Below, in pieces: positions 2,702 to 16,716 of a DNA stretch of 38,275 nucleotides. Under the pieces are notes generated by a model. That model was not told the DNA's origin and ran no database searches. It saw only the letters and a list, made by a program, of their open reading frames with translations. Origin of the DNA: a virus (lineage: Duplodnaviria; Caudoviricetes); IMG/VR virus record IMGVR_UViG_3300022719_000349, positions 1 to 38,275 of that record; one strand, written 5' to 3'. A program made the translations under genes and the position numbers. Position 1 is the stretch's first letter. The number at the start of each line of letters is the position of its first letter.

Positions 2702-3105
2702 GTTCGTTTGTCCTTTCTGTTCGAGTAGTCGCGCATCGCTTCGACGACGCGCTCGGTGTGGTCGTTCGCCGTGTCGGTGCCCCCGAACCTGTCCTGAATC
2801 CAACGACGGATCGAGTCCGACGCCTTGGCCCGCTCGTCCGGCTCGGGCTCGGGATGACGGACATACGTTCCCGTCGGAGCCACCGCAGCACGGACCGACT
2901 CGGCTATCTCAAGAGGCACGGGACGGATGCGACCCCGATACGTCTGCGCCGCCAGCAACTCGATTGCATCGCGAACCTTTGCAAACTCCAGCGACCCGAC
3001 CGCCTCCCACAGGCGAGCGACGTAGGCCGACTGGGCCAAGGACTCCGAGAAGGGCCAGCGCTCAACGACGATGGCCGTGATCGTGGCGAATTCCTGCTTC
3101 GTCAT
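2698..3105 (-). CDS. Hypothetical protein, possible replicative helicase loader/inhibitor
   Basis: 135-aa ORF directly downstream of the replication initiator. The MTKQEFATI..W..LW..V..L pattern resembles G39P-type loaders; the call is mostly positional. Confidence 0.45.
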   Translation of the reverse strand: MTKQEFATITAIVVERWPFSESLAQSAYVARLWEAVGSLEFAKVRDAIELLAAQTYRGRIRPVPLEIAESVRAAVAPTGTYVRHPEPEPDERAKASDSIRRWIQDRFGGTDTANDHTERVVEAMRDYSNRKDKRT

Positions 3106-4175
3106 CCGCTCTCTCCGTGATCGGGCAAGGCGTCTATGATCCGTTGAAGCTCGTCGGATTTCCGCTGCTTCGAGCAGTGCGGGGGCCTGCCGCGCTCGTC
3201 CCAGGTCTCGGCCTCGGTGAGGTAGTCCTTGACGTGGCTGGCCCGCAGAAAGGTCGGGAGCCCGTACGGCTCGCCGCTGTCCTTCGTCAGGCCCCGATCC
3301 ACAAACCAGCGGATGGCCAGCGTGATCTTGGGCCAGCGCCAGTCACCCCCCGACCGACCAACCGCCTTGAGCCAGCGCCGGATGCCGTCGGCGTGCCGTG
3401 TCGGGCTCGGGTTGATGGGTCGGATGTCGGTCCCGGTGACCAGACCCCGCCACAAGGACACGAACCGATCCATGTCCGCCCGCGTAACTGCCCCATTTCG
3501 TGCCTTCGATTCTGAGGGCCCTGACGCTCGCTGTACGGGCTTTTCGTTTCGCCCCCCCTCGGGAGGGGTGGAAGGCCCGACGTGCTCGCCTGCGGAGCGT
3601 GAGGCCGCTTCTCGCGGCTGCTTGGGCTGTTCGGCAGATACACGGTCGGTTCCGGCGATGAAATCGGCGGAAACCGACGAGGAGTCATCGCTAGATGACT
3701 CCGATATCTCATCTGTGGACTCGGGTGCGGGCTCGGGGTCGTGGGGTTCGGGTATCGGGACACGGGTCTCGGGGCGACTGTTTTGCCGAGCGTTTGCCGC
3801 GGCATTTGCCGGAGCACTTGCCGCGTCGTTTGCCGCGGCACTTGCCGCAGACCTCGCCCGGTTCGTTTTCTCCGCACCACGCTGTCCGGCCTCGGATCGG
3901 ACTTTTCGGAGGTGCAAAACGGTCTTCTTGCTGGGGTTCATGTCGAGGTAGTCGTGGACCCAGACGCTGCCGTCCTCGCCACGGTCCCAGACACCGGCGT
4001 CAAGAAGCTCTTGGCAGGCCGCTTGAGACTCGGCCAGCCGCTTCGGAATCAGGCCGTCCGTCAGCCTGCGAGCGCAGTAGCACAAGAACTCAACGTGGGT
4101 CCGAAAGGCGTCGTCGCTCAGGCCAGCGACTTTGGGGTGCTCGGGGAACCCGTCATCCAGTTTCACCCAGACCAC
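3102..4175 (-). CDS. Phage replication initiator / replisome organizer
   Basis: N-terminal WVKLDDGFPEHPKV...LCYC...TDG, WVHDYLDMNPS and SEAGQRG are typical of phage initiators. Low-complexity linker contains DNA repeats. GTG start after GGAGGAGG. Confidence 0.75.
   Translation of the reverse strand: MVWVKLDDGFPEHPKVAGLSDDAFRTHVEFLCYCARRLTDGLIPKRLAESQAACQELLDAGVWDRGEDGSVWVHDYLDMNPSKKTVLHLRKVRSEAGQRGAEKTNRARSAASAAANDAASAPANAAANARQNSRPETRVPIPEPHDPEPAPESTDEISESSSDDSSSVSADFIAGTDRVSAEQPKQPREAASRSAGEHVGPSTPPEGGRNEKPVQRASGPSESKARNGAVTRADMDRFVSLWRGLVTGTDIRPINPSPTRHADGIRRWLKAVGRSGGDWRWPKITLAIRWFVDRGLTKDSGEPYGLPTFLRASHVKDYLTEAETWDERGRPPHCSKQRKSDELQRIIDALPDHGESG
3783..3847. repeat. Iteron-like tandem repeats, putative replication origin
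   Basis: TTGCCG at 3783, 3794, 3806, 3818, 3830 and 3842 (spacing 11,12,12,12,12) inside the initiator gene. Confidence 0.6.
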
Positions 4176-4180
4176 GGTCG

Positions 4181-4294
4181 CCTCCTCCTGGAACCCGACC
4201 CCGAGAAGAACGGGAAGGCGTGCAACCCCTCGTCCGCAGTAGCGCCGGGGTCGGGTTCCAGAAGGGGGGCCACTGCCGGTAGAGGTTGCACGCC
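4181..4294 (-). ncRNA. Structured leader / antisense-loop RNA, copy A
   Basis: Stem 4281-4294 pairs with 4217-4230 plus an inner GCAGUGGC/GCUACUGC helix. Loop segment 4246-4261 is perfectly complementary to 4188-4203, next to the initiator RBS. G-U wobbles favour the minus strand. Confidence 0.7.
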
Positions 4295-4298
4295 CCCT

Positions 4299-4327
4299 AT
4301 TGTACACGGAGCACGGACAGAAGTCAT
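4299..4327 (-). promoter_or_regulatory. Sigma70-like promoter, copy A
   Basis: ATGACT-17 bp-TACAAT; near-identical to the element at 4676-4704. Confidence 0.6.
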
Positions 4328-4346
4328 CCACCACGCAGCGCGGAAC

Positions 4347-4547
4347 TCAGCCATCCCCGTCCTCGCGCCACTCGTAGATCTGCCCGCATCGCAAGCAGGC
4401 CGCGAAGTCCGCCCAGTGCATGACGAAGCCAAGGCAATCGTCTACATCGCAAGGGAATCCGCCTGATTCGAATTCGGACTCGGACCACAACCGCCGGAGC
4501 AGCTTCGCAGGCGTCAGACGATCTTCGCGGTGCCAGCTTTTAGCCAT
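4347..4547 (-). CDS. Small Cys-rich (Zn-ribbon-like) hypothetical protein
   Basis: 66 aa starting MAKSWHRED, with CDVDDC and CLRCG motifs and a GGGAGGG RBS. Confidence 0.65.
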   Translation of the reverse strand: MAKSWHREDRLTPAKLLRRLWSESEFESGGFPCDVDDCLGFVMHWADFAACLRCGQIYEWREDGDG

Positions 4548-4553
4548 GGCGCA

Positions 4554-4672
4554 CCCTCCCTGAAAGCCGCGGCCCCGTGAGTACAAGGGGGATCGTGACA
4601 GCCTCCAAGCACATCAGGGCCGGGGCCGGGCTCTCAGGAAGGGGGCTCCTGATGCGAGAGACTGTCACGCCC
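4554..4672 (-). ncRNA. Structured leader / antisense-loop RNA, copy B
   Basis: Stem CGUGACAGUCUC/GAGGCUGUCACG (4658-4669 with 4594-4605) plus an inner CAUCAGG/CCUGAUG helix. Loop 4621-4643 is complementary to 4554-4577, which covers the RBS of the gene starting at 4547. Confidence 0.7.
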
Positions 4673-4675
4673 CCC

Positions 4676-4704
4676 ATGGTACACGGCGCACAGACAGGAA
4701 TCAT
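4676..4704 (-). promoter_or_regulatory. Sigma70-like promoter, copy B
   Basis: ATGATT-17 bp-TACCAT; spacer highly similar to copy A. Confidence 0.6.
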
Positions 4705-4970
4705 GCCGCGCCCGAGTCCTTCCGCGAGATCGTGGAGCGGGCCGCCTCCCACTTCGCCAAGTCCTCCGCAGCACTGTGACGCTCGCCGGTGTCGGGGTCG
4801 ATCACGTCGTGCCGAAGCACCCCGTGGTGGTCGAACGCGCCCTCGCGCGTCAGTCGTTCCAGCCACGCGATGCGCGAGGATCGTCGGTCCTCCGTCTCTC
4901 GTGATCGTCCGTGCGACTCGCGCGCCGGGTACGAGCCCGCGACGATGATCTCGCCCCGGAAGTATCTCAT
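4701..4970 (-). CDS. Hypothetical protein
   Basis: 89-aa ORF, ATGA-coupled to the RNA ligase stop. Confidence 0.55.
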   Translation of the reverse strand: MRYFRGEIIVAGSYPARESHGRSRETEDRRSSRIAWLERLTREGAFDHHGVLRHDVIDPDTGERHSAAEDLAKWEAARSTISRKDSGAA

Positions 4971-5614
4971 GAGCGAAAATCCCGAATCTTCAGTTTTGCG
5001 ATCACTCGTTCTCCGTGCTGGTCTCGCAACTCAACGGACGGCCTCAAGACCACGCCTTCGGCTTGCCTCTGTGCCCCCGGGAGGCCCGAGGGAAAGCCGT
5101 CCGCACATAGCACCGCGGCCCCGGCAAGCGTCATGCGCCCGAGCGGAGGCGCGTGCGGTACACCCAAGGCATCCGCAATCGCATATACCTTTTCCCGATG
5201 CATCCATCGTCCGCGTTGCAGAACGTCGAACAGGCAAAAGCCAACGCCGTCCTCCTTGTAGCCGCCGCCGCCCTTCTGGATTCTCGCGCCGTATCCCTCG
5301 CCATAAAGGACGCATTCGCCCATCTCGATGCCCGGCACGGACGAGAGCGTGGCGGGGTCCAGACGTTCGCGCAGCATGTCGAGCAGGAACGGCGGAAGCT
5401 GCGCGTTGTCGGTCCGCCCCCGAAACTCGACTGCCGGCCCCGAGGCGGTAGGCCACGGCATCACGCGGACGTTGGTGCCATCGATCTTCTCCTCGGCAAT
5501 CCACCGGAGCCCTCTCAGCGCCCAGAACTCCGGTCGCGCATACTCGTCTAAAAACGTCTTGTGGTTCGTTGTGGGATCACGCATCCACACGCTCTGAATC
5601 TTCGGGTACTTCAC
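4967..5614 (-). CDS. RNA ligase family nucleotidyltransferase, paralog 1
   Basis: Motifs I EKIDG, III LYGEGYG, IIIa FCLFDV, IV EGVV and V AKLK. GTG start after GGAGGAGG, overlapping the upstream stop. Confidence 0.85.
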   Translation of the reverse strand: MKYPKIQSVWMRDPTTNHKTFLDEYARPEFWALRGLRWIAEEKIDGTNVRVMPWPTASGPAVEFRGRTDNAQLPPFLLDMLRERLDPATLSSVPGIEMGECVLYGEGYGARIQKGGGGYKEDGVGFCLFDVLQRGRWMHREKVYAIADALGVPHAPPLGRMTLAGAAVLCADGFPSGLPGAQRQAEGVVLRPSVELRDQHGERVIAKLKIRDFRS

Positions 5615-5892
5615 TGGTCCTCCTCCATCGCCTTGAGGGCGGCGCGGCCCGCGGGGGTCAATGTGACGCGGGCAGGGAGGCGGCAGCGCGATGCTCTGCG
5701 GCGACGGCCCCAAGTAACAAGGCCCCGCCCCCGCAGGGCGAGCATGGTGGACCTCCGCACGGCGTCCCCCTTCCTTGTGCTCCAGCGGAACCCGCCCGTG
5801 TCGGTCGGGCTCCTGTACCGATAGTGCTTGAGCGCATTCCCGAGCCCTAGGAGCGTCAAGACGTGTTCTTGCGTTTCACTCAGGCGCATCAT
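5611..5892 (-). CDS. Hypothetical basic protein, possibly winged-helix-like
   Basis: 93 aa; ALRGRGLV...TLTPAGRAAL pattern; GGAGG RBS. Confidence 0.6.
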   Translation of the reverse strand: MMRLSETQEHVLTLLGLGNALKHYRYRSPTDTGGFRWSTRKGDAVRRSTMLALRGRGLVTWGRRRRASRCRLPARVTLTPAGRAALKAMEEDQ

Positions 5893-8490: not shown

Positions 8491-9041
8491 TGACGAATCA
8501 GGAAATCTTCGACACGGTGCTCGCCTTCATCCGCAAGCAGGGCAAGCCGTCCGGGGACGAGGATCAGTGCTACTACCAGCATCCGGACAACCCTGCCATC
8601 GGGTGCGCGATGCGCCCGCTAATCGACATGATCGAAGACCCCGACGCGAGGGAGGAAGCCTTGAGGGAGGTGAGTGTCGAGGTTTTGGTGGAGGAACAAG
8701 ACTTGTCGGGCTCGCCGCTGGCTTACGCCGACCTCGGCTTCCTGGCGGAACTGCAATCCGCCCACGACCTAGCAGCAACGAACGACGATTCCCTCTTCCG
8801 GGAGCGCTTCGAGGAGAACATGCGCGAGGCCGCGGAAAAATACAACCTGCACTACGCCGAGCAGTCGGGGCTGCGTTGTATCGCTCTGGCGGAGCGCGTG
8901 GTGGAAGCGGCGCGGGACGTCGCTTCCTCCGCCGTGGTGTTCGACGACGACCGGATCGCTTGGGTAGAGGCTCAGGTGAACCGTGAGGCCCTGACAGAGC
9001 TTCGCGCCGCGCTCGCCGCGCTGGAGGACAACGATGCATGA
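8490..9041 (+). CDS. Hypothetical protein, probably with a chimeric C-terminus
   Basis: Starts MTNQEIFDTV; has IGCAM and LAELQSAHD segments; carries copy 1 of a 43-bp direct repeat. Confidence 0.7.
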   Translation: MTNQEIFDTVLAFIRKQGKPSGDEDQCYYQHPDNPAIGCAMRPLIDMIEDPDAREEALREVSVEVLVEEQDLSGSPLAYADLGFLAELQSAHDLAATNDDSLFRERFEENMREAAEKYNLHYAEQSGLRCIALAERVVEAARDVASSAVVFDDDRIAWVEAQVNREALTELRAALAALEDNDA

Positions 9042-9132
9042 TCCGGAAAAGGCCGCGCTGATCGCGAGGCTCCAACGGGCAGAAGCGGAAGAACATGCGC
9101 GAGGCCGCGGAAAAATACAACCTGCACTACGC
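8815..9132 (+). repeat. 43-bp perfect direct repeat pair
   Basis: AGAACATGCGCGAGGCCGCGGAAAAATACAACCTGCACTACGC at 8815-8857 and 9090-9132. Confidence 0.95.
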
Positions 9133-9144
9133 GGAGGAGGAGTG

Positions 9145-9408
9145 ATGGCCTACGACGAGCCGGGCAAGCCCCGCCACCGACCCTGCCCCGAGTGCGACGG
9201 CACGGGAGAGTGCTACGAACGCGATCTGCTGTTCTGCCTCGACTGCGACGATTGTCGCGAGCTGGATTGTCCCGAGTGCGAGGGTACGGGCGAAGCCCCC
9301 GAGCTGCTACGGGTGCTCCACGGCCTGACCCCGGGAGGATTGATCGCGAGGCTGCGCGCGGACCTGGCGGACGCCGAGGCTGCGCGCCGCGCTGGAGGAC
9401 ACCCGTGA
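9145..9408 (+). CDS. DnaJ-type zinc-finger protein
   Basis: CPECDGTG and CPECEGTG motifs plus CLDCDDC; GGAGGAGG RBS. The frame is open upstream to an ATG at 9034. Confidence 0.6.
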   Translation: MAYDEPGKPRHRPCPECDGTGECYERDLLFCLDCDDCRELDCPECEGTGEAPELLRVLHGLTPGGLIARLRADLADAEAARRAGGHP

Positions 9409-9749
9409 GTGAAAAAGACCCGTTGGTTGCGTGCGCCCGCCGATTGCGGGACGTGGAGCGCGAGTTGGATGAACTACGGGCCGTAGCCCGGTATCGCGAT
9501 AGCATCGACACCTACCGAGCCTTCCGCGAGAAGCACCCGTACGCCAACGCCATCGATGCCGCCCTCGCCGCCGCCTACGAGCAGGGGCGGGAGGACGAGA
9601 ACAGGGCGTGCGAAGACATCGTGCGTCCGAAACCCGGACCGGAGCCCCTGGACTTCAACATGCACCGTGCTCTACAACGCCAGCGGCGCCGACTTTCCGC
9701 CGCCATCGCCGCGCGGCGCACGGCAGAGGAGGACAACGATGGGCAGTGA
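9405..9749 (+). CDS. Hypothetical protein
   Basis: GTG start overlapping the upstream stop, GGAGG RBS, helical composition. Confidence 0.6.
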   Translation: MSEKDPLVACARRLRDVERELDELRAVARYRDSIDTYRAFREKHPYANAIDAALAAAYEQGREDENRACEDIVRPKPGPEPLDFNMHRALQRQRRRLSAAIAARRTAEEDNDGQ

Positions 9750-9925: not shown

Positions 9926-10150
9926 ATGCAGGTTGCTCATGTGTGGTTCGTCGAGACGGACGTCCTCGTCCTTCGTGTTGTCGCATCGACTCCCGACGAA
10001 GCGGGCGGCATCGCCAGGAAGTACCTTCTGCACCATCACGGATCGCGGCCCGCGACCGCGCCGAGCCCGGTGGTGGGGCTGCCGGTGGGCAACATCGGGG
10101 CCGTCCGGGTTCTTTCGATCCGACGGGACCAGGCGGTGGTGGTGAAATGA
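9926..10150 (+). CDS. Hypothetical protein
   Basis: GGAGG RBS; ATGA-coupled to the ligase. Confidence 0.6.
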   Translation: MQVAHVWFVETDVLVLRVVASTPDEAGGIARKYLLHHHGSRPATAPSPVVGLPVGNIGAVRVLSIRRDQAVVVK

Positions 10151-11220
10151 AGATCAACTACGAGAGCCCGGTGCTCTACTCGCGCTCGAAGAGCGGCCAA
10201 CTGCGCTTCTGGCAGGTTTCAGCGACAAGCGACGGAAAGGTCAAGTTCTACTACGGGAACTATGGCACTCCCCGCCCGTCGCACCGCTCTTATCGGGCGC
10301 GGCCGACCAACGTCGGGCGCAGCAACAAGCGCACCGCTGCGGAACAGGCCGCGTTCGAGGCTCGTGCGGCCTGTGAGCACAAGCTCGCGCGCAAGTACAG
10401 CCTCACGCAGCAGGGAGCCCAAGAGCAGTTGGATTACCTCCCCATGCTGGCCAAGAGCTTTGTCGAAGGTAACCTCGGGTTCCCTGCGGCCATTCAGCCG
10501 AAACTCGATGGATTCCGCTGCCTCGCACGTTGGGAGGACGGTCAGGTTCTGCTCACGTCGAGACAGGGCAAGGAGTTCGAGCTGCCGCACATCGCCGAAG
10601 CGCTGGAACCCGTCCTGGGGCGCACAGACGTCATCCTCGACGGAGAGCTATACATTCACGGCGAGCCCCTTCAGCGCATCGCTTCGCTCATCCGGCGGCA
10701 TCAGGATGAGACGGAGCGCATCAAGTACTTCCCGTACGACATCGTCAACGGCGACGAGTTCCAGGTACGCTGGGACGCGTTGGAGGCCGTGCTGTCGCCG
10801 CTTGACGACCCCGCGGTGGAGATGTGCCCGACCTACCTTGTCGAATCGGAGGACCAGGCGCGCGAGTGGCAGGGCGTCTTCCTGTCCGAGGGCTTCGAGG
10901 GCGCGGTCCTGCGTTCGCTCACGGGCATCTACCGCCAGGGCCACCGGAGCGGCAGCCTGCTCAAGATGAAGCAGTTCATCGACGAGGAGTTCCTCATCAC
11001 CGGGGTCAAGGAGGGCAAGAACAAGATGGCTGTGCTAACCTGTCACGCGCCCGGGGGCGAGTTCGGTGTCACGTTCGGCTCGCACGAGGAGCGGCGGGAG
11101 CAACTTCGCCGCCCGGAGCTGTTCATCGGCCGCAAGCTGACCGTGCGGTTCTCCGGCTGGACACGAGACAAGAAACCCTTCCACCCGACCGGGGTGGTCA
11201 TTCGAGAGGACTGGGACTAG
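10147..11220 (+). CDS. ATP-dependent DNA ligase
   Basis: PMLAK, QPKLDGFRC (motif I), LDGELY, PYDIV, EGAVLR, LLKMK and a C-terminal OB-like segment GRKLTVRF...PFHP; N-terminal extension of about 95 aa. Confidence 0.93.
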   Translation: MKINYESPVLYSRSKSGQLRFWQVSATSDGKVKFYYGNYGTPRPSHRSYRARPTNVGRSNKRTAAEQAAFEARAACEHKLARKYSLTQQGAQEQLDYLPMLAKSFVEGNLGFPAAIQPKLDGFRCLARWEDGQVLLTSRQGKEFELPHIAEALEPVLGRTDVILDGELYIHGEPLQRIASLIRRHQDETERIKYFPYDIVNGDEFQVRWDALEAVLSPLDDPAVEMCPTYLVESEDQAREWQGVFLSEGFEGAVLRSLTGIYRQGHRSGSLLKMKQFIDEEFLITGVKEGKNKMAVLTCHAPGGEFGVTFGSHEERREQLRRPELFIGRKLTVRFSGWTRDKKPFHPTGVVIREDWD

Positions 11221-12048: not shown

Positions 12049-12143
12049 CGAATCGCACCGACCGCCTGCGCAGCCTCGGCAACGCTGTCGTACCCGCCCA
12101 AGCCGAGTACGCCTTCCGACTTCTTGCAAGGAGAATCACATGA
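11223..12143 (+). CDS. DNA (cytosine-5) methyltransferase, main (alpha-type) chain
   Basis: Motifs I FSGIGG, IV GFPCQ, VI ENV, VIII PHLRKRLF and X RLRSLGNAVVP; motif IX not evident in this frame. Confidence 0.9.
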   Translation: MADPRPTILSLFSGIGGLEMGLARALGGARLLGCCERDAFAASVLLARMEEETMESAPVWCGSLEDADFGAFEGRVDWIAAGFPCQPWSAAGKRKGTEDDRWLWPALERVLRAVRPRGVFLENVPQLARGGLGYVLRDLSLLGFDAEWATVSAAEVGAPHLRKRLFVLAHRTGARRACAEDSGADFADAGTGIRSHEPDRQGDDVVNADGEGLQGRGLDAGSVGDERRQLPAWPPGPDDAEGWARVLETRPDLAPALPPVRGVADGVHGGLDAAMTNRTDRLRSLGNAVVPAQAEYAFRLLARRIT

Positions 12144-12787
12144 GATACCACAAGATCTACGGACCCTTCAAGCGCGACGACCAGGGCATCCTGATGACGC
12201 ACGTCTGGCACCGGCCGGAGTTCGGAGCGCTCCTCGACGTGCCGATCTGGAACGCAACGGAGAAGCTGGACGGCATGAACATCCGTGTGATCTGGGACGG
12301 GCGCGATGTCACCTTCGCGGGCAAGTCGGACCACGCGAACCTGCCGCCCGCCCTCGTGAAGGTGCTTGTAGACACCTTCCCCCCGTACCGACTGGCTGCG
12401 ACGTTCGACGATATCCCGGCCACCCTGTACGGCGAAGGCTACGGGGGCAAGATCCAGCGCGGTGGTCGCTACCGCCCTGATCCGAGTTTTGCGCTGTTCG
12501 ACGTGCGCGCCGGAGGCTTGTGGCTGCGTCGTGCTGCCGTGGCGCAGATCGCGGCGGACCTGGATGCAGCGGTGGTTCCCACGACATACGCCTACCGCAC
12601 GCTCCGCTGGCTCATCGAGCGCGCCAGCGATGGCATGAAGAGCCTGTTCGGGGACACCCCCTCCGAAGGGCTCGTCGCGCGAACGGAACTGGAGCTCCGC
12701 GACCGGCGCGGGGACCGGATCATCTGCAAGCTTCGCACCCGCGACATGGGCAGCTCTGCCGTGCGGGCGTGGTTGGGTCGCCTATGA
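12140..12787 (+). CDS. RNA ligase family nucleotidyltransferase, paralog 2
   Basis: EKLDG, LYGEGYG, FALFDV, EGLV and CKLR; colinear similarity to 4967-5614; AAGGAG RBS. Confidence 0.85.
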   Translation: MRYHKIYGPFKRDDQGILMTHVWHRPEFGALLDVPIWNATEKLDGMNIRVIWDGRDVTFAGKSDHANLPPALVKVLVDTFPPYRLAATFDDIPATLYGEGYGGKIQRGGRYRPDPSFALFDVRAGGLWLRRAAVAQIAADLDAAVVPTTYAYRTLRWLIERASDGMKSLFGDTPSEGLVARTELELRDRRGDRIICKLRTRDMGSSAVRAWLGRL

Positions 12788-16640: not shown

Positions 16641-16676
16641 GAAAACGAGCCCCCGACCACAAAGGGCCGAGGGCTC
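16641..16676 (-). terminator. Terminator closing the tail operon
   Basis: Stem GAGCCCUCGGCC/GGUCGGGGGCUC followed by GUUUUC, about 40 nt after the last tail-block stop codon. Confidence 0.6.
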
Positions 16677-16716
16677 TAAGGAGGAGGCAGCCCGCGCGGT
16701 GCGCGGGATGAGGTGA

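Follow-up and report, generated by a model that had tools for sequence, protein, structure and literature searches.

Two paralogous modules on the minus strand of a phage DNA, module A (4327-4173) in front of the replication initiator gene and module B (4704-4545) in front of a small gene with a cysteine motif, each combine a promoter-like sequence with a predicted leader RNA that has two mutually exclusive folds. In one fold a 5′ hairpin keeps, in its closed loop, a segment complementary to the ribosome binding site (RBS) of the next gene, and in the other that segment is paired with the RBS. Fold modelling and comparison of the copies point to a real two-state leader RNA, with a mechanism of known type but uncatalogued in Rfam, and each module probably serves in cis as a timed translational lock, that of module A being on the initiator.

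The window, meaning the whole stretch of DNA analysed, is an entire virus record of 38,275 nt with a G+C content of 65%, and encodes an integrase, RuvC, Erf, an HTH regulator, a terminase and the major head protein. The modules lie in a leftward run that starts with the HTH gene (7199-6990), followed by an RNA ligase gene, an 89-aa ORF and module B, and ends with a 66-aa Cys-motif ORF, module A, the replication initiator, a 135-aa ORF and Erf. The two genes directly downstream of modules are:

3102-4175, minus strand: replication initiator gene, GTG start, 357 aa, matching phrog_3926 (E 1.3e-24) and phrog_2447 (E 1.1e-23)
4347-4547, minus strand: 66-aa orphan gene downstream of module B, with a CxxxxC/CxxC motif

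A reading made earlier from the letters alone (the sequence-only reading) had named the gene after module A as a replication initiator, and the phrog_3926 match, at an E of about 1e-24, bears this out. Its 'Zn-ribbon' label for the gene after module B holds for the CxxxxC/CxxC motif but gains nothing from Pfam or PHROG, where the gene has zero matches, and a homolog search with it returned itself alone. The initiator frame is also open upstream across all of module A (4334-4175, minus strand) from a GTG at 4334 that has no clear Shine-Dalgarno (SD) sequence, and a nested initiator start like that of eta/kil is possible. Inside the initiator gene, at 3791-3862, four repeats with a 12-nt period are either iterons or merely an Ala-rich linker.

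The promoters and hairpins of the modules are as follows:

4299-4327, minus strand: predicted sigma-70 promoter A, −35 ATGACT, 17 nt, −10 TACAAT; 9/12 match
4676-4704, minus strand: predicted promoter B, −35 ATGATT, 17 nt, −10 TACCAT; weak −35
4217-4293, minus strand: hairpin A, 13-bp lower stem, 3′ bulge, 10-bp upper stem and ~25-nt loop; its 5′ end is at the predicted transcription start
4594-4669, minus strand: hairpin B, 13-bp lower stem, 3-nt 3′ bulge, 9+3-bp upper stem and loop

Both of the homologous promoter and hairpin modules described in the sequence-only reading were located where it had placed them, on the minus strand. The promoters, which it had called near-identical, share 24 of 29 letters, but only that of A reaches the scanner threshold of 9/12, and the −35 of B (ATGATT) is weak. 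The interrupted hairpins, put at ~80 nt, are ~77 nt long in both modules and have predicted energies of −46.8 (A) and −45.0 (B) kcal/mol with z of −3.7 and −4.2, none of 200 shuffles being as good for either. A covariance model made from A alone finds B at 60.7 bits, the rest of the window scoring at most 12.2 bits. In both copies the minus strand folds better than the plus strand as RNA, the hairpins are predicted to be undisturbed by upstream sequence in read-through RNA, and a pyrimidine-rich linker follows the hairpin. The tRNA promoter of the same phage (16571-16537, minus strand; TTGACC-16-TAGGAT) has its −10 ending 7 nt before the first tRNA base, so that, judging from spacing, the tRNA transcript may have hardly any 5′ leader; by analogy, transcription of each module could plausibly begin at the foot of the hairpin, 5-7 nt after the −10.

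Pairing analysis places the loop segments and their targets as follows:

4246-4268, minus strand: loop A, anti-RBS segment
4181-4203, minus strand: target A, ending in the SD GGAGGAGG (4188-4181)
4621-4645, minus strand: loop B, anti-RBS segment
4554-4577, minus strand: target B, including the SD region

In both modules the loop/target helix is of 22-23 bp and covers the SD of the next gene. The 16-bp Watson-Crick core that had been read between 4246-4261 of loop A and 4188-4203 is correct, and loop B pairs over 23 bp with 4577-4554, with one bulged C. Between hairpins A and B, with the register of the upper stem set by hand, nine of 21 aligned pairs are the same, four have one-sided and eight two-sided changes, and none is broken even though 20 of 42 paired letters differ; on permuting the 3′ letters of the 12 changed pairs, all still paired in 4 of 100,000 trials. 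The loop/target helix has 15 identical pairs among 23 aligned, with three one-sided and three two-sided changes, two pairs broken at its outer end, and an extra A-U pair, a paired insertion, in B only. The claim that pairing is kept despite divergence thus stands, save for those two outer pairs. The further claim that the differences read as G-U only on the minus strand is right for eight G-U pairs, but the four helices also have one C-A mismatch and one bulge. The comparison, one of two paralogs rather than a phylogenetic covariation test, indicates that both folds are under selection in these two copies.

A structure acting at the DNA level, or a by-product of duplication with no role as RNA, is a very improbable explanation. 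Both pairings are inverted repeats in the DNA and the modules are a duplication, yet the transcribed strand has the eight G-U pairs against one C-A, RNA folding favours the transcribed strand in A and B whereas DNA folding is nearly symmetric for hairpin A, there are matched changes in both folds, and four cases of the element sit between a −10 box and an SD.

The hairpin and the loop/RBS helix are mutually exclusive. The sequence-only reading had considered a long duplex through a closed loop topologically hard and alternative folding or action in trans likely, and from geometry the full helix should indeed be unable to coexist with the hairpin. What that reading lacked is that the minimum-energy fold of the whole leader is the loop/RBS helix and not the hairpin. 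With stepwise minimum-energy folding of growing prefixes the hairpin comes first and the loop/RBS helix takes over from ~4186 (A) and ~4557 (B). For leaders reaching 15 nt past the start codon the loop/RBS fold has −73.7 kcal/mol against −56.4 with the hairpin kept in A, and −71.8 against −61.8 in B, an advantage of 17 and 10 kcal/mol respectively, and for leaders ending at the start codon the ensemble-energy advantage of the helix is about 9 (A) and 13 (B) kcal/mol. Nested refolding paths have barriers of 36 (A) and 49 (B) kcal/mol; as the model leaves pseudoknots out, these values are upper bounds. A seed of 8-12 bp made with the 3′ end of the loop has a predicted energy of −17 to −26 kcal/mol, and by its geometry the linker of 15-16 nt could span the stem and permit such a seed. 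The mean unpaired probability of the SD window is 0.17 (A) and 0.08 (B) at equilibrium, and 0.41 and 0.39 with the hairpin held; that the SD is only ~40% unpaired in the hairpin state is due to formation of a weak local hairpin.

For the timed lock, the computed folds suggest that the 5′ hairpin would be completed first during transcription, trapping the anti-RBS in its closed loop with the SD partly free, and that once the target is made the 22-23-bp loop/RBS helix, about 8-13 kcal/mol more stable, would bury the SD. Only fresh message would then be translated, in the delay before refolding, for which the GC-rich 3′ end of the loop is the probable nucleation site, by way of a pseudoknot of 8-12 bp.

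Such a mechanism appears closest to that of the MS2 maturation-gene leader, for which PMC4615214 describes a metastable co-transcriptional hairpin that traps the anti-SD, and a final fold that buries the SD after a brief translation window. Both features of such a trap come out of the predictions here: in stepwise folding the hairpin sequesters the anti-SD before the SD is made, and the final fold buries the SD. The likeness to MS2 and Levivirus is thus an upstream anti-SD in a metastable hairpin together with a final fold over the SD. However, in MS2, an RNA phage, the SD pairing is of 7 nt and the trap hairpin is small (PMC4615214), whereas the modules are promoter leaders of a DNA phage with a 22-23-bp helix and a trap stem of 22-25 bp that shows the anti-SD in its loop, before a DNA replication initiator. 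The metastable hairpins of AapA3, as reported in PMC6733600, are opposite in sign, the SD being hidden during transcription.

Across each module, too, runs a predicted ORF that bridges the gap between the neighboring genes:

4163-4354, minus strand: bridging ORF A, 63 codons, ATG with GAGG upstream, overlapping the previous stop and crossing module A
4540-4704, minus strand: bridging ORF B, 54 codons, ATGA overlap with the stop of the upstream gene, crossing module B

The stop of ORF A is 10 nt inside the initiator and that of ORF B 5 nt inside the gene after module B. In both the frame stays open although five letters are inserted and the peptides encoded over the leader are unrelated; the other two frames are closed across module B, and in A all three are open. 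Each has an in-frame GTG, at 4291 (A) and 4668 (B), 7 nt after the −10, which from its position could serve leaderless initiation; 5′-GUG starts are among those reported in mycobacteria (bioRxiv 10.1101/834739). One of two candidate leaders in other phages (L009, described below) also has a bridging ORF, starting at the stop of the previous gene, crossing promoter and leader, and stopping 1 nt past the next start. The second (L040) is different in having an SD-led uORF of 37 codons that ends in an ATGA overlap. The rates expected by chance are high (0.28 for A, 0.36 for B and 0.11 for L009), and a bridging ORF is likewise present in 38 of 120 gaps picked automatically in fetched phage DNA, so these ORFs are weak evidence and a lead only. 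More speculatively, ribosomes coupled from the upstream gene would cross the bridging ORF and melt the lock, letting the hairpin re-form, in which case transcripts from the upstream promoter would be translated and those from the internal promoters mostly silent.

Ribosomes on a leader ORF also figure in a different and rather improbable reading, in which the module is an activating pseudoknot like that of IncI repZ: the 3′ 8-12 loop nucleotides would pair and open the local SD hairpin after passage of a leader-peptide ribosome, full pairing being a later dead end. The repZ precedent itself (PMC8053102), the stability of 8-12-bp partial helices (−17 to −26 kcal/mol) formed by the most conserved, GC-rich letters, the local SD hairpin predicted in the hairpin-kept state, and, in A, B and L040, uORFs whose ends fall at the start of the downstream gene all speak for it. 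However, in A, B and L009 the complementarity covers the SD itself and is kept by matched changes, which activation does not need. In IncI1/IncB repZ/repA, according to PMC8053102, a leader-hairpin loop likewise pairs beside the initiator start and a leader ORF may be involved; in contrast to the modules, where pairing extends over the SD and no antisense promoter was found in two stretches scanned for TANNNT, the repZ pseudoknot is described as activating translation and as being blocked by an antisense RNA (PMC8053102).

Antisense control of initiators is common in plasmids, and the large predicted barrier could keep the hairpin long-lived unless something triggers refolding. A triggered switch, in which the hairpin state would be ON and stable and the choice of state would fall to an antisense RNA or to a protein opening or clamping the stem, is nevertheless less probable still: scanning the plus strand for TANNNT −10 hexamers yields none in 4001-4260 or 4401-4640, there is no third or antisense copy of the module elsewhere in the 38-kb contig, and no candidate RNA-binding protein was identified on this possibly incomplete contig.

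Whether the modules would act in cis or in trans is addressed by target specificity. Loop A binds target A with −46.6 and target B with −28.4, and loop B binds target B with −50.4 and target A with −42.7, so the best target of each loop is its own adjacent gene. Among 239 candidate starts the best site outside 4100-4700 was matched by 16 (A) and 11 (B) of 60 shuffled loops. A loop-B-like site at 16657-16688 was set aside, being no translation start but apparently a hairpin arm between convergent genes. For a free short hairpin RNA, invasion is predicted at its own target alone, with a ddG of about −12 against 0 to −1.4 at the other. No RNase P-like cloverleaf or countertranscript promoter able to release or trigger a free RNA was found, nor any convincing intrinsic terminator after either hairpin, there being one weak terminator-like site in A only. 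That each loop has one adjacent gene and that no other start beats chance favors the cis lock over a trans guide. The sequence-only reading had proposed a translational switch or a trans-acting guide with interchangeable loop specificity; an RNA element that has two alternative folds and is aimed at the initiator RBS is supported, whereas the trans guide with interchangeable loops is weakly if at all supported, the loops being diverged paralogs rather than swapped cassettes. The design appears to match each loop to a single adjacent gene, in contrast to a one-to-many sRNA, and cross-talk from B to A is possible.

The main rival to the cis lock is a processed, trans-acting immunity RNA like CI of P4 or C4 of P1, and it is considered unlikely, though an RNA-based immunity role is possible. 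Constitutive internal promoters would yield a transcript that is cut or trimmed to the stable ~77-nt hairpin and binds the initiator RBS in trans, on nascent or incoming mRNA. Here the P4 layout is suggestive: in the account of PMC10111431 a constitutive promoter lies inside eta, eta is coupled upstream, and translating eta overcomes the block imposed by the RNA. The start of the hairpin coincides with the predicted +1, the pyrimidine-rich linker comes after it, the predicted ddG of about −12 kcal/mol would let the short RNA bind its own target, loop B also pairs with target A, and the phage carries an integrase. Set against this are the single long loop in place of two short seeds, the lack of a second target site among the 239 starts, the lack of a convincing terminator beyond the weak site of A, and the failure of the Rfam C4 and isrK models to match even at E up to 10; moreover, a cis target 15 nt away should outcompete trans binding, and full pairing in trans would still require the stem to open.

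In gene layout the modules do appear closest to P4 eta/CI. As with CI, seqA/seqC and eta-kil, there is an internal promoter, a ~77-nt leader RNA and a nearby target (PMC10111431; PMC4825925), and replication genes lie downstream; the ORF coupled to the upstream gene that PMC10111431 describes for P4 may have a counterpart in the predicted bridging ORFs, given their high chance rates. However, CI is described as processed, acting in trans on two targets and causing termination (PMC10111431; PMC4825925), while each module pairs with one adjacent downstream target, over the SD, matches no Rfam family and shows no sign of processing. The two-target feature of P4, with seqA upstream and seqC downstream, is absent, no other site being above chance. 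P1/P7 C4 similarly shows an anti-RBS in the loop of a ~77-nt phage RNA, but C4 is described as having three stem-loops, two short seeds and a 5′ end made by RNase P (PMC5320573) in contrast to a single long hairpin with one long seed. IsrK of the Gifsy-1 prophage is like the modules in being the 5′ part of an mRNA with two folds, one of them silent, long-range pairing of ~30 nt and translational coupling, and in that it could act on its own message; its terminator, however, makes a short RNA that activates in trans (PMC4825925), and the modules have neither a convincing terminator nor an Rfam isrK match. As far as these accounts go, the modules lack a defining feature of each of C4, IsrK and the repZ pseudoknot.

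A scan of the kind proposed in the sequence-only reading shows that the modules match no Rfam family: with Rfam 15 the window gives only a tRNA at the gathering threshold, with weak miRNA and snoRNA hairpin matches far below it at E up to 10. The covariance-model search for relatives that it also proposed found no orthologous module in 81 and 80 loci, 79 whole records or genomes and two samples of 151 genomes, the genome searches being weak, with just 19-123 candidates scored per bacterial genome. Exact patterns for the module found no stretches of viral contigs in one search and 98 in another, none with the layout; a further pattern search gave none that is convincing among 120 of ~310 stretches listed, the model being run on 100 of the 120. 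A metagenome pattern gave four stretches, none of them a module; one is a chance match and the other three look like cobalamin riboswitches by their motif. With blastn there was no homolog among cultured phages for the modules or for the L009 leader. An RNA-ligase query found no related locus, and three relatives found through the capsid (62-64% identity) were fragments without the initiator. The literature searched, largely outside subscription papers, held no description of the element.

Homologs of the initiator offer another route. The set, 62 viral and 18 genomic loci, the best 80 of 279 from another scan of viral DNA, which added 74 new ones, and 8 of 81 records of cultured phages, comes to 162 distinct contigs, not dereplicated and a few with little upstream DNA. 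A detector of the layout called for a −10 hexamer, a stem of at least 11 bp and a free loop pairing next to an SD-led start; it was tuned after L009 and L040 had already been seen, a first generic version being too loose. It gave eight matches in 409 sequences (1.40 Mb), corresponding to five elements, A (−47.7), B (−51.5), L009 (−47.4), L040 (−20.6) and L302 (−19.5), against 13 matches in 7.0 Mb of shuffled sequence, the best at −24.4; 48 further loci (0.73 Mb) gave zero. The layout, with unrelated letters, thus occurs upstream of the initiator family in two of 162 contigs, clearly in L009 and borderline in L040, whose score falls within the shuffle range:

902-1042 of L009: leader with TAGAAT, 15-bp stem and 31-bp loop/RBS duplex of −47 kcal/mol
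1366-1503 of L040: leader with 13-bp stem and 13-bp core, directly before the initiator

Its absence from the other 160 shows that the layout is neither needed for the initiator family nor general in it. In L009 the leader comes before an HNH gene that overlaps the initiator start with its stop codon, and the leader loop has one target among 167 starts. Neither leader has an Rfam match at E of 0.1 or below. Holding the hairpin gives no gain in SD accessibility in either (0.18 against 0.22 in L009, 0.42 against 0.40 in L040), which leaves an ON state unsupported there. The element at 902-1042 is an uncatalogued anti-RBS leader with an extra small hairpin inside its loop, while the L040 leader hairpin also hides the SD and ATG of the 37-codon uORF, and a tmRNA end is present at the start of that locus. 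Partial look-alikes in L157, L197, L275 and L302 are at about chance level and were not counted; L275 has, at 283-393 of its plus strand, a hairpin with partial loop complementarity before an SD that reached −32.6 in a scan with no promoter requirement.

It is a tentative suggestion that these leaders belong to a recurrent, sequence-independent phage class that rations an initiator with no repressor protein, a hairpin with a gene-specific anti-RBS loop of 22-31 nt acting as a folding timer that ribosomes on a peptide-neutral bridging ORF reset, and that the hairpin, once trimmed, may also serve in sequence-specific RNA immunity. Being defined by layout and not by sequence, such a class would be missed by Rfam-type searches. 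On the usual view, protein repressors acting at promoters control the initiators of lambda-type phages. A lock made of RNA only, with its gene-specific helix of 23 bp, would, if real, be an added post-transcriptional layer over initiators, one that has been copied and re-tuned in front of another gene and that recurs in other phages with letters unrelated to these. The A/B pair is in effect a natural experiment for loop swaps, and the element a compact natural timer or riboregulator scaffold.

A variant from the same study differs twice within 4163-4704, in linker B and at 4704, where GTG replaces ATG; these changes are too few to weigh as evidence. A variant contig (run X2) has its changes clustered in the 89-aa ORF (4788-4948), with a different sequence upstream of the ORF start, which marks the gene preceding module B as exchangeable. 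Near-identical duplications occur among the small early genes, of 50 nt (8815-8864 and 9090-9139) and 31 nt (9011-9041 and 9382-9412), and suggest gene shuffling via short homology. A pentapeptide-repeat protein (PF00805; 7277-7585, plus strand) is encoded divergently from the HTH regulator, with a promoter-like site at 7238-7210 between them. The phage also has two PF09414 RNA-ligase genes (4967-5617, minus strand; 12140-12787, plus strand), an ATP-dependent DNA ligase (10147-11220) and a Met tRNA (16536-16464), a combination possibly serving tRNA-repair counter-defence.
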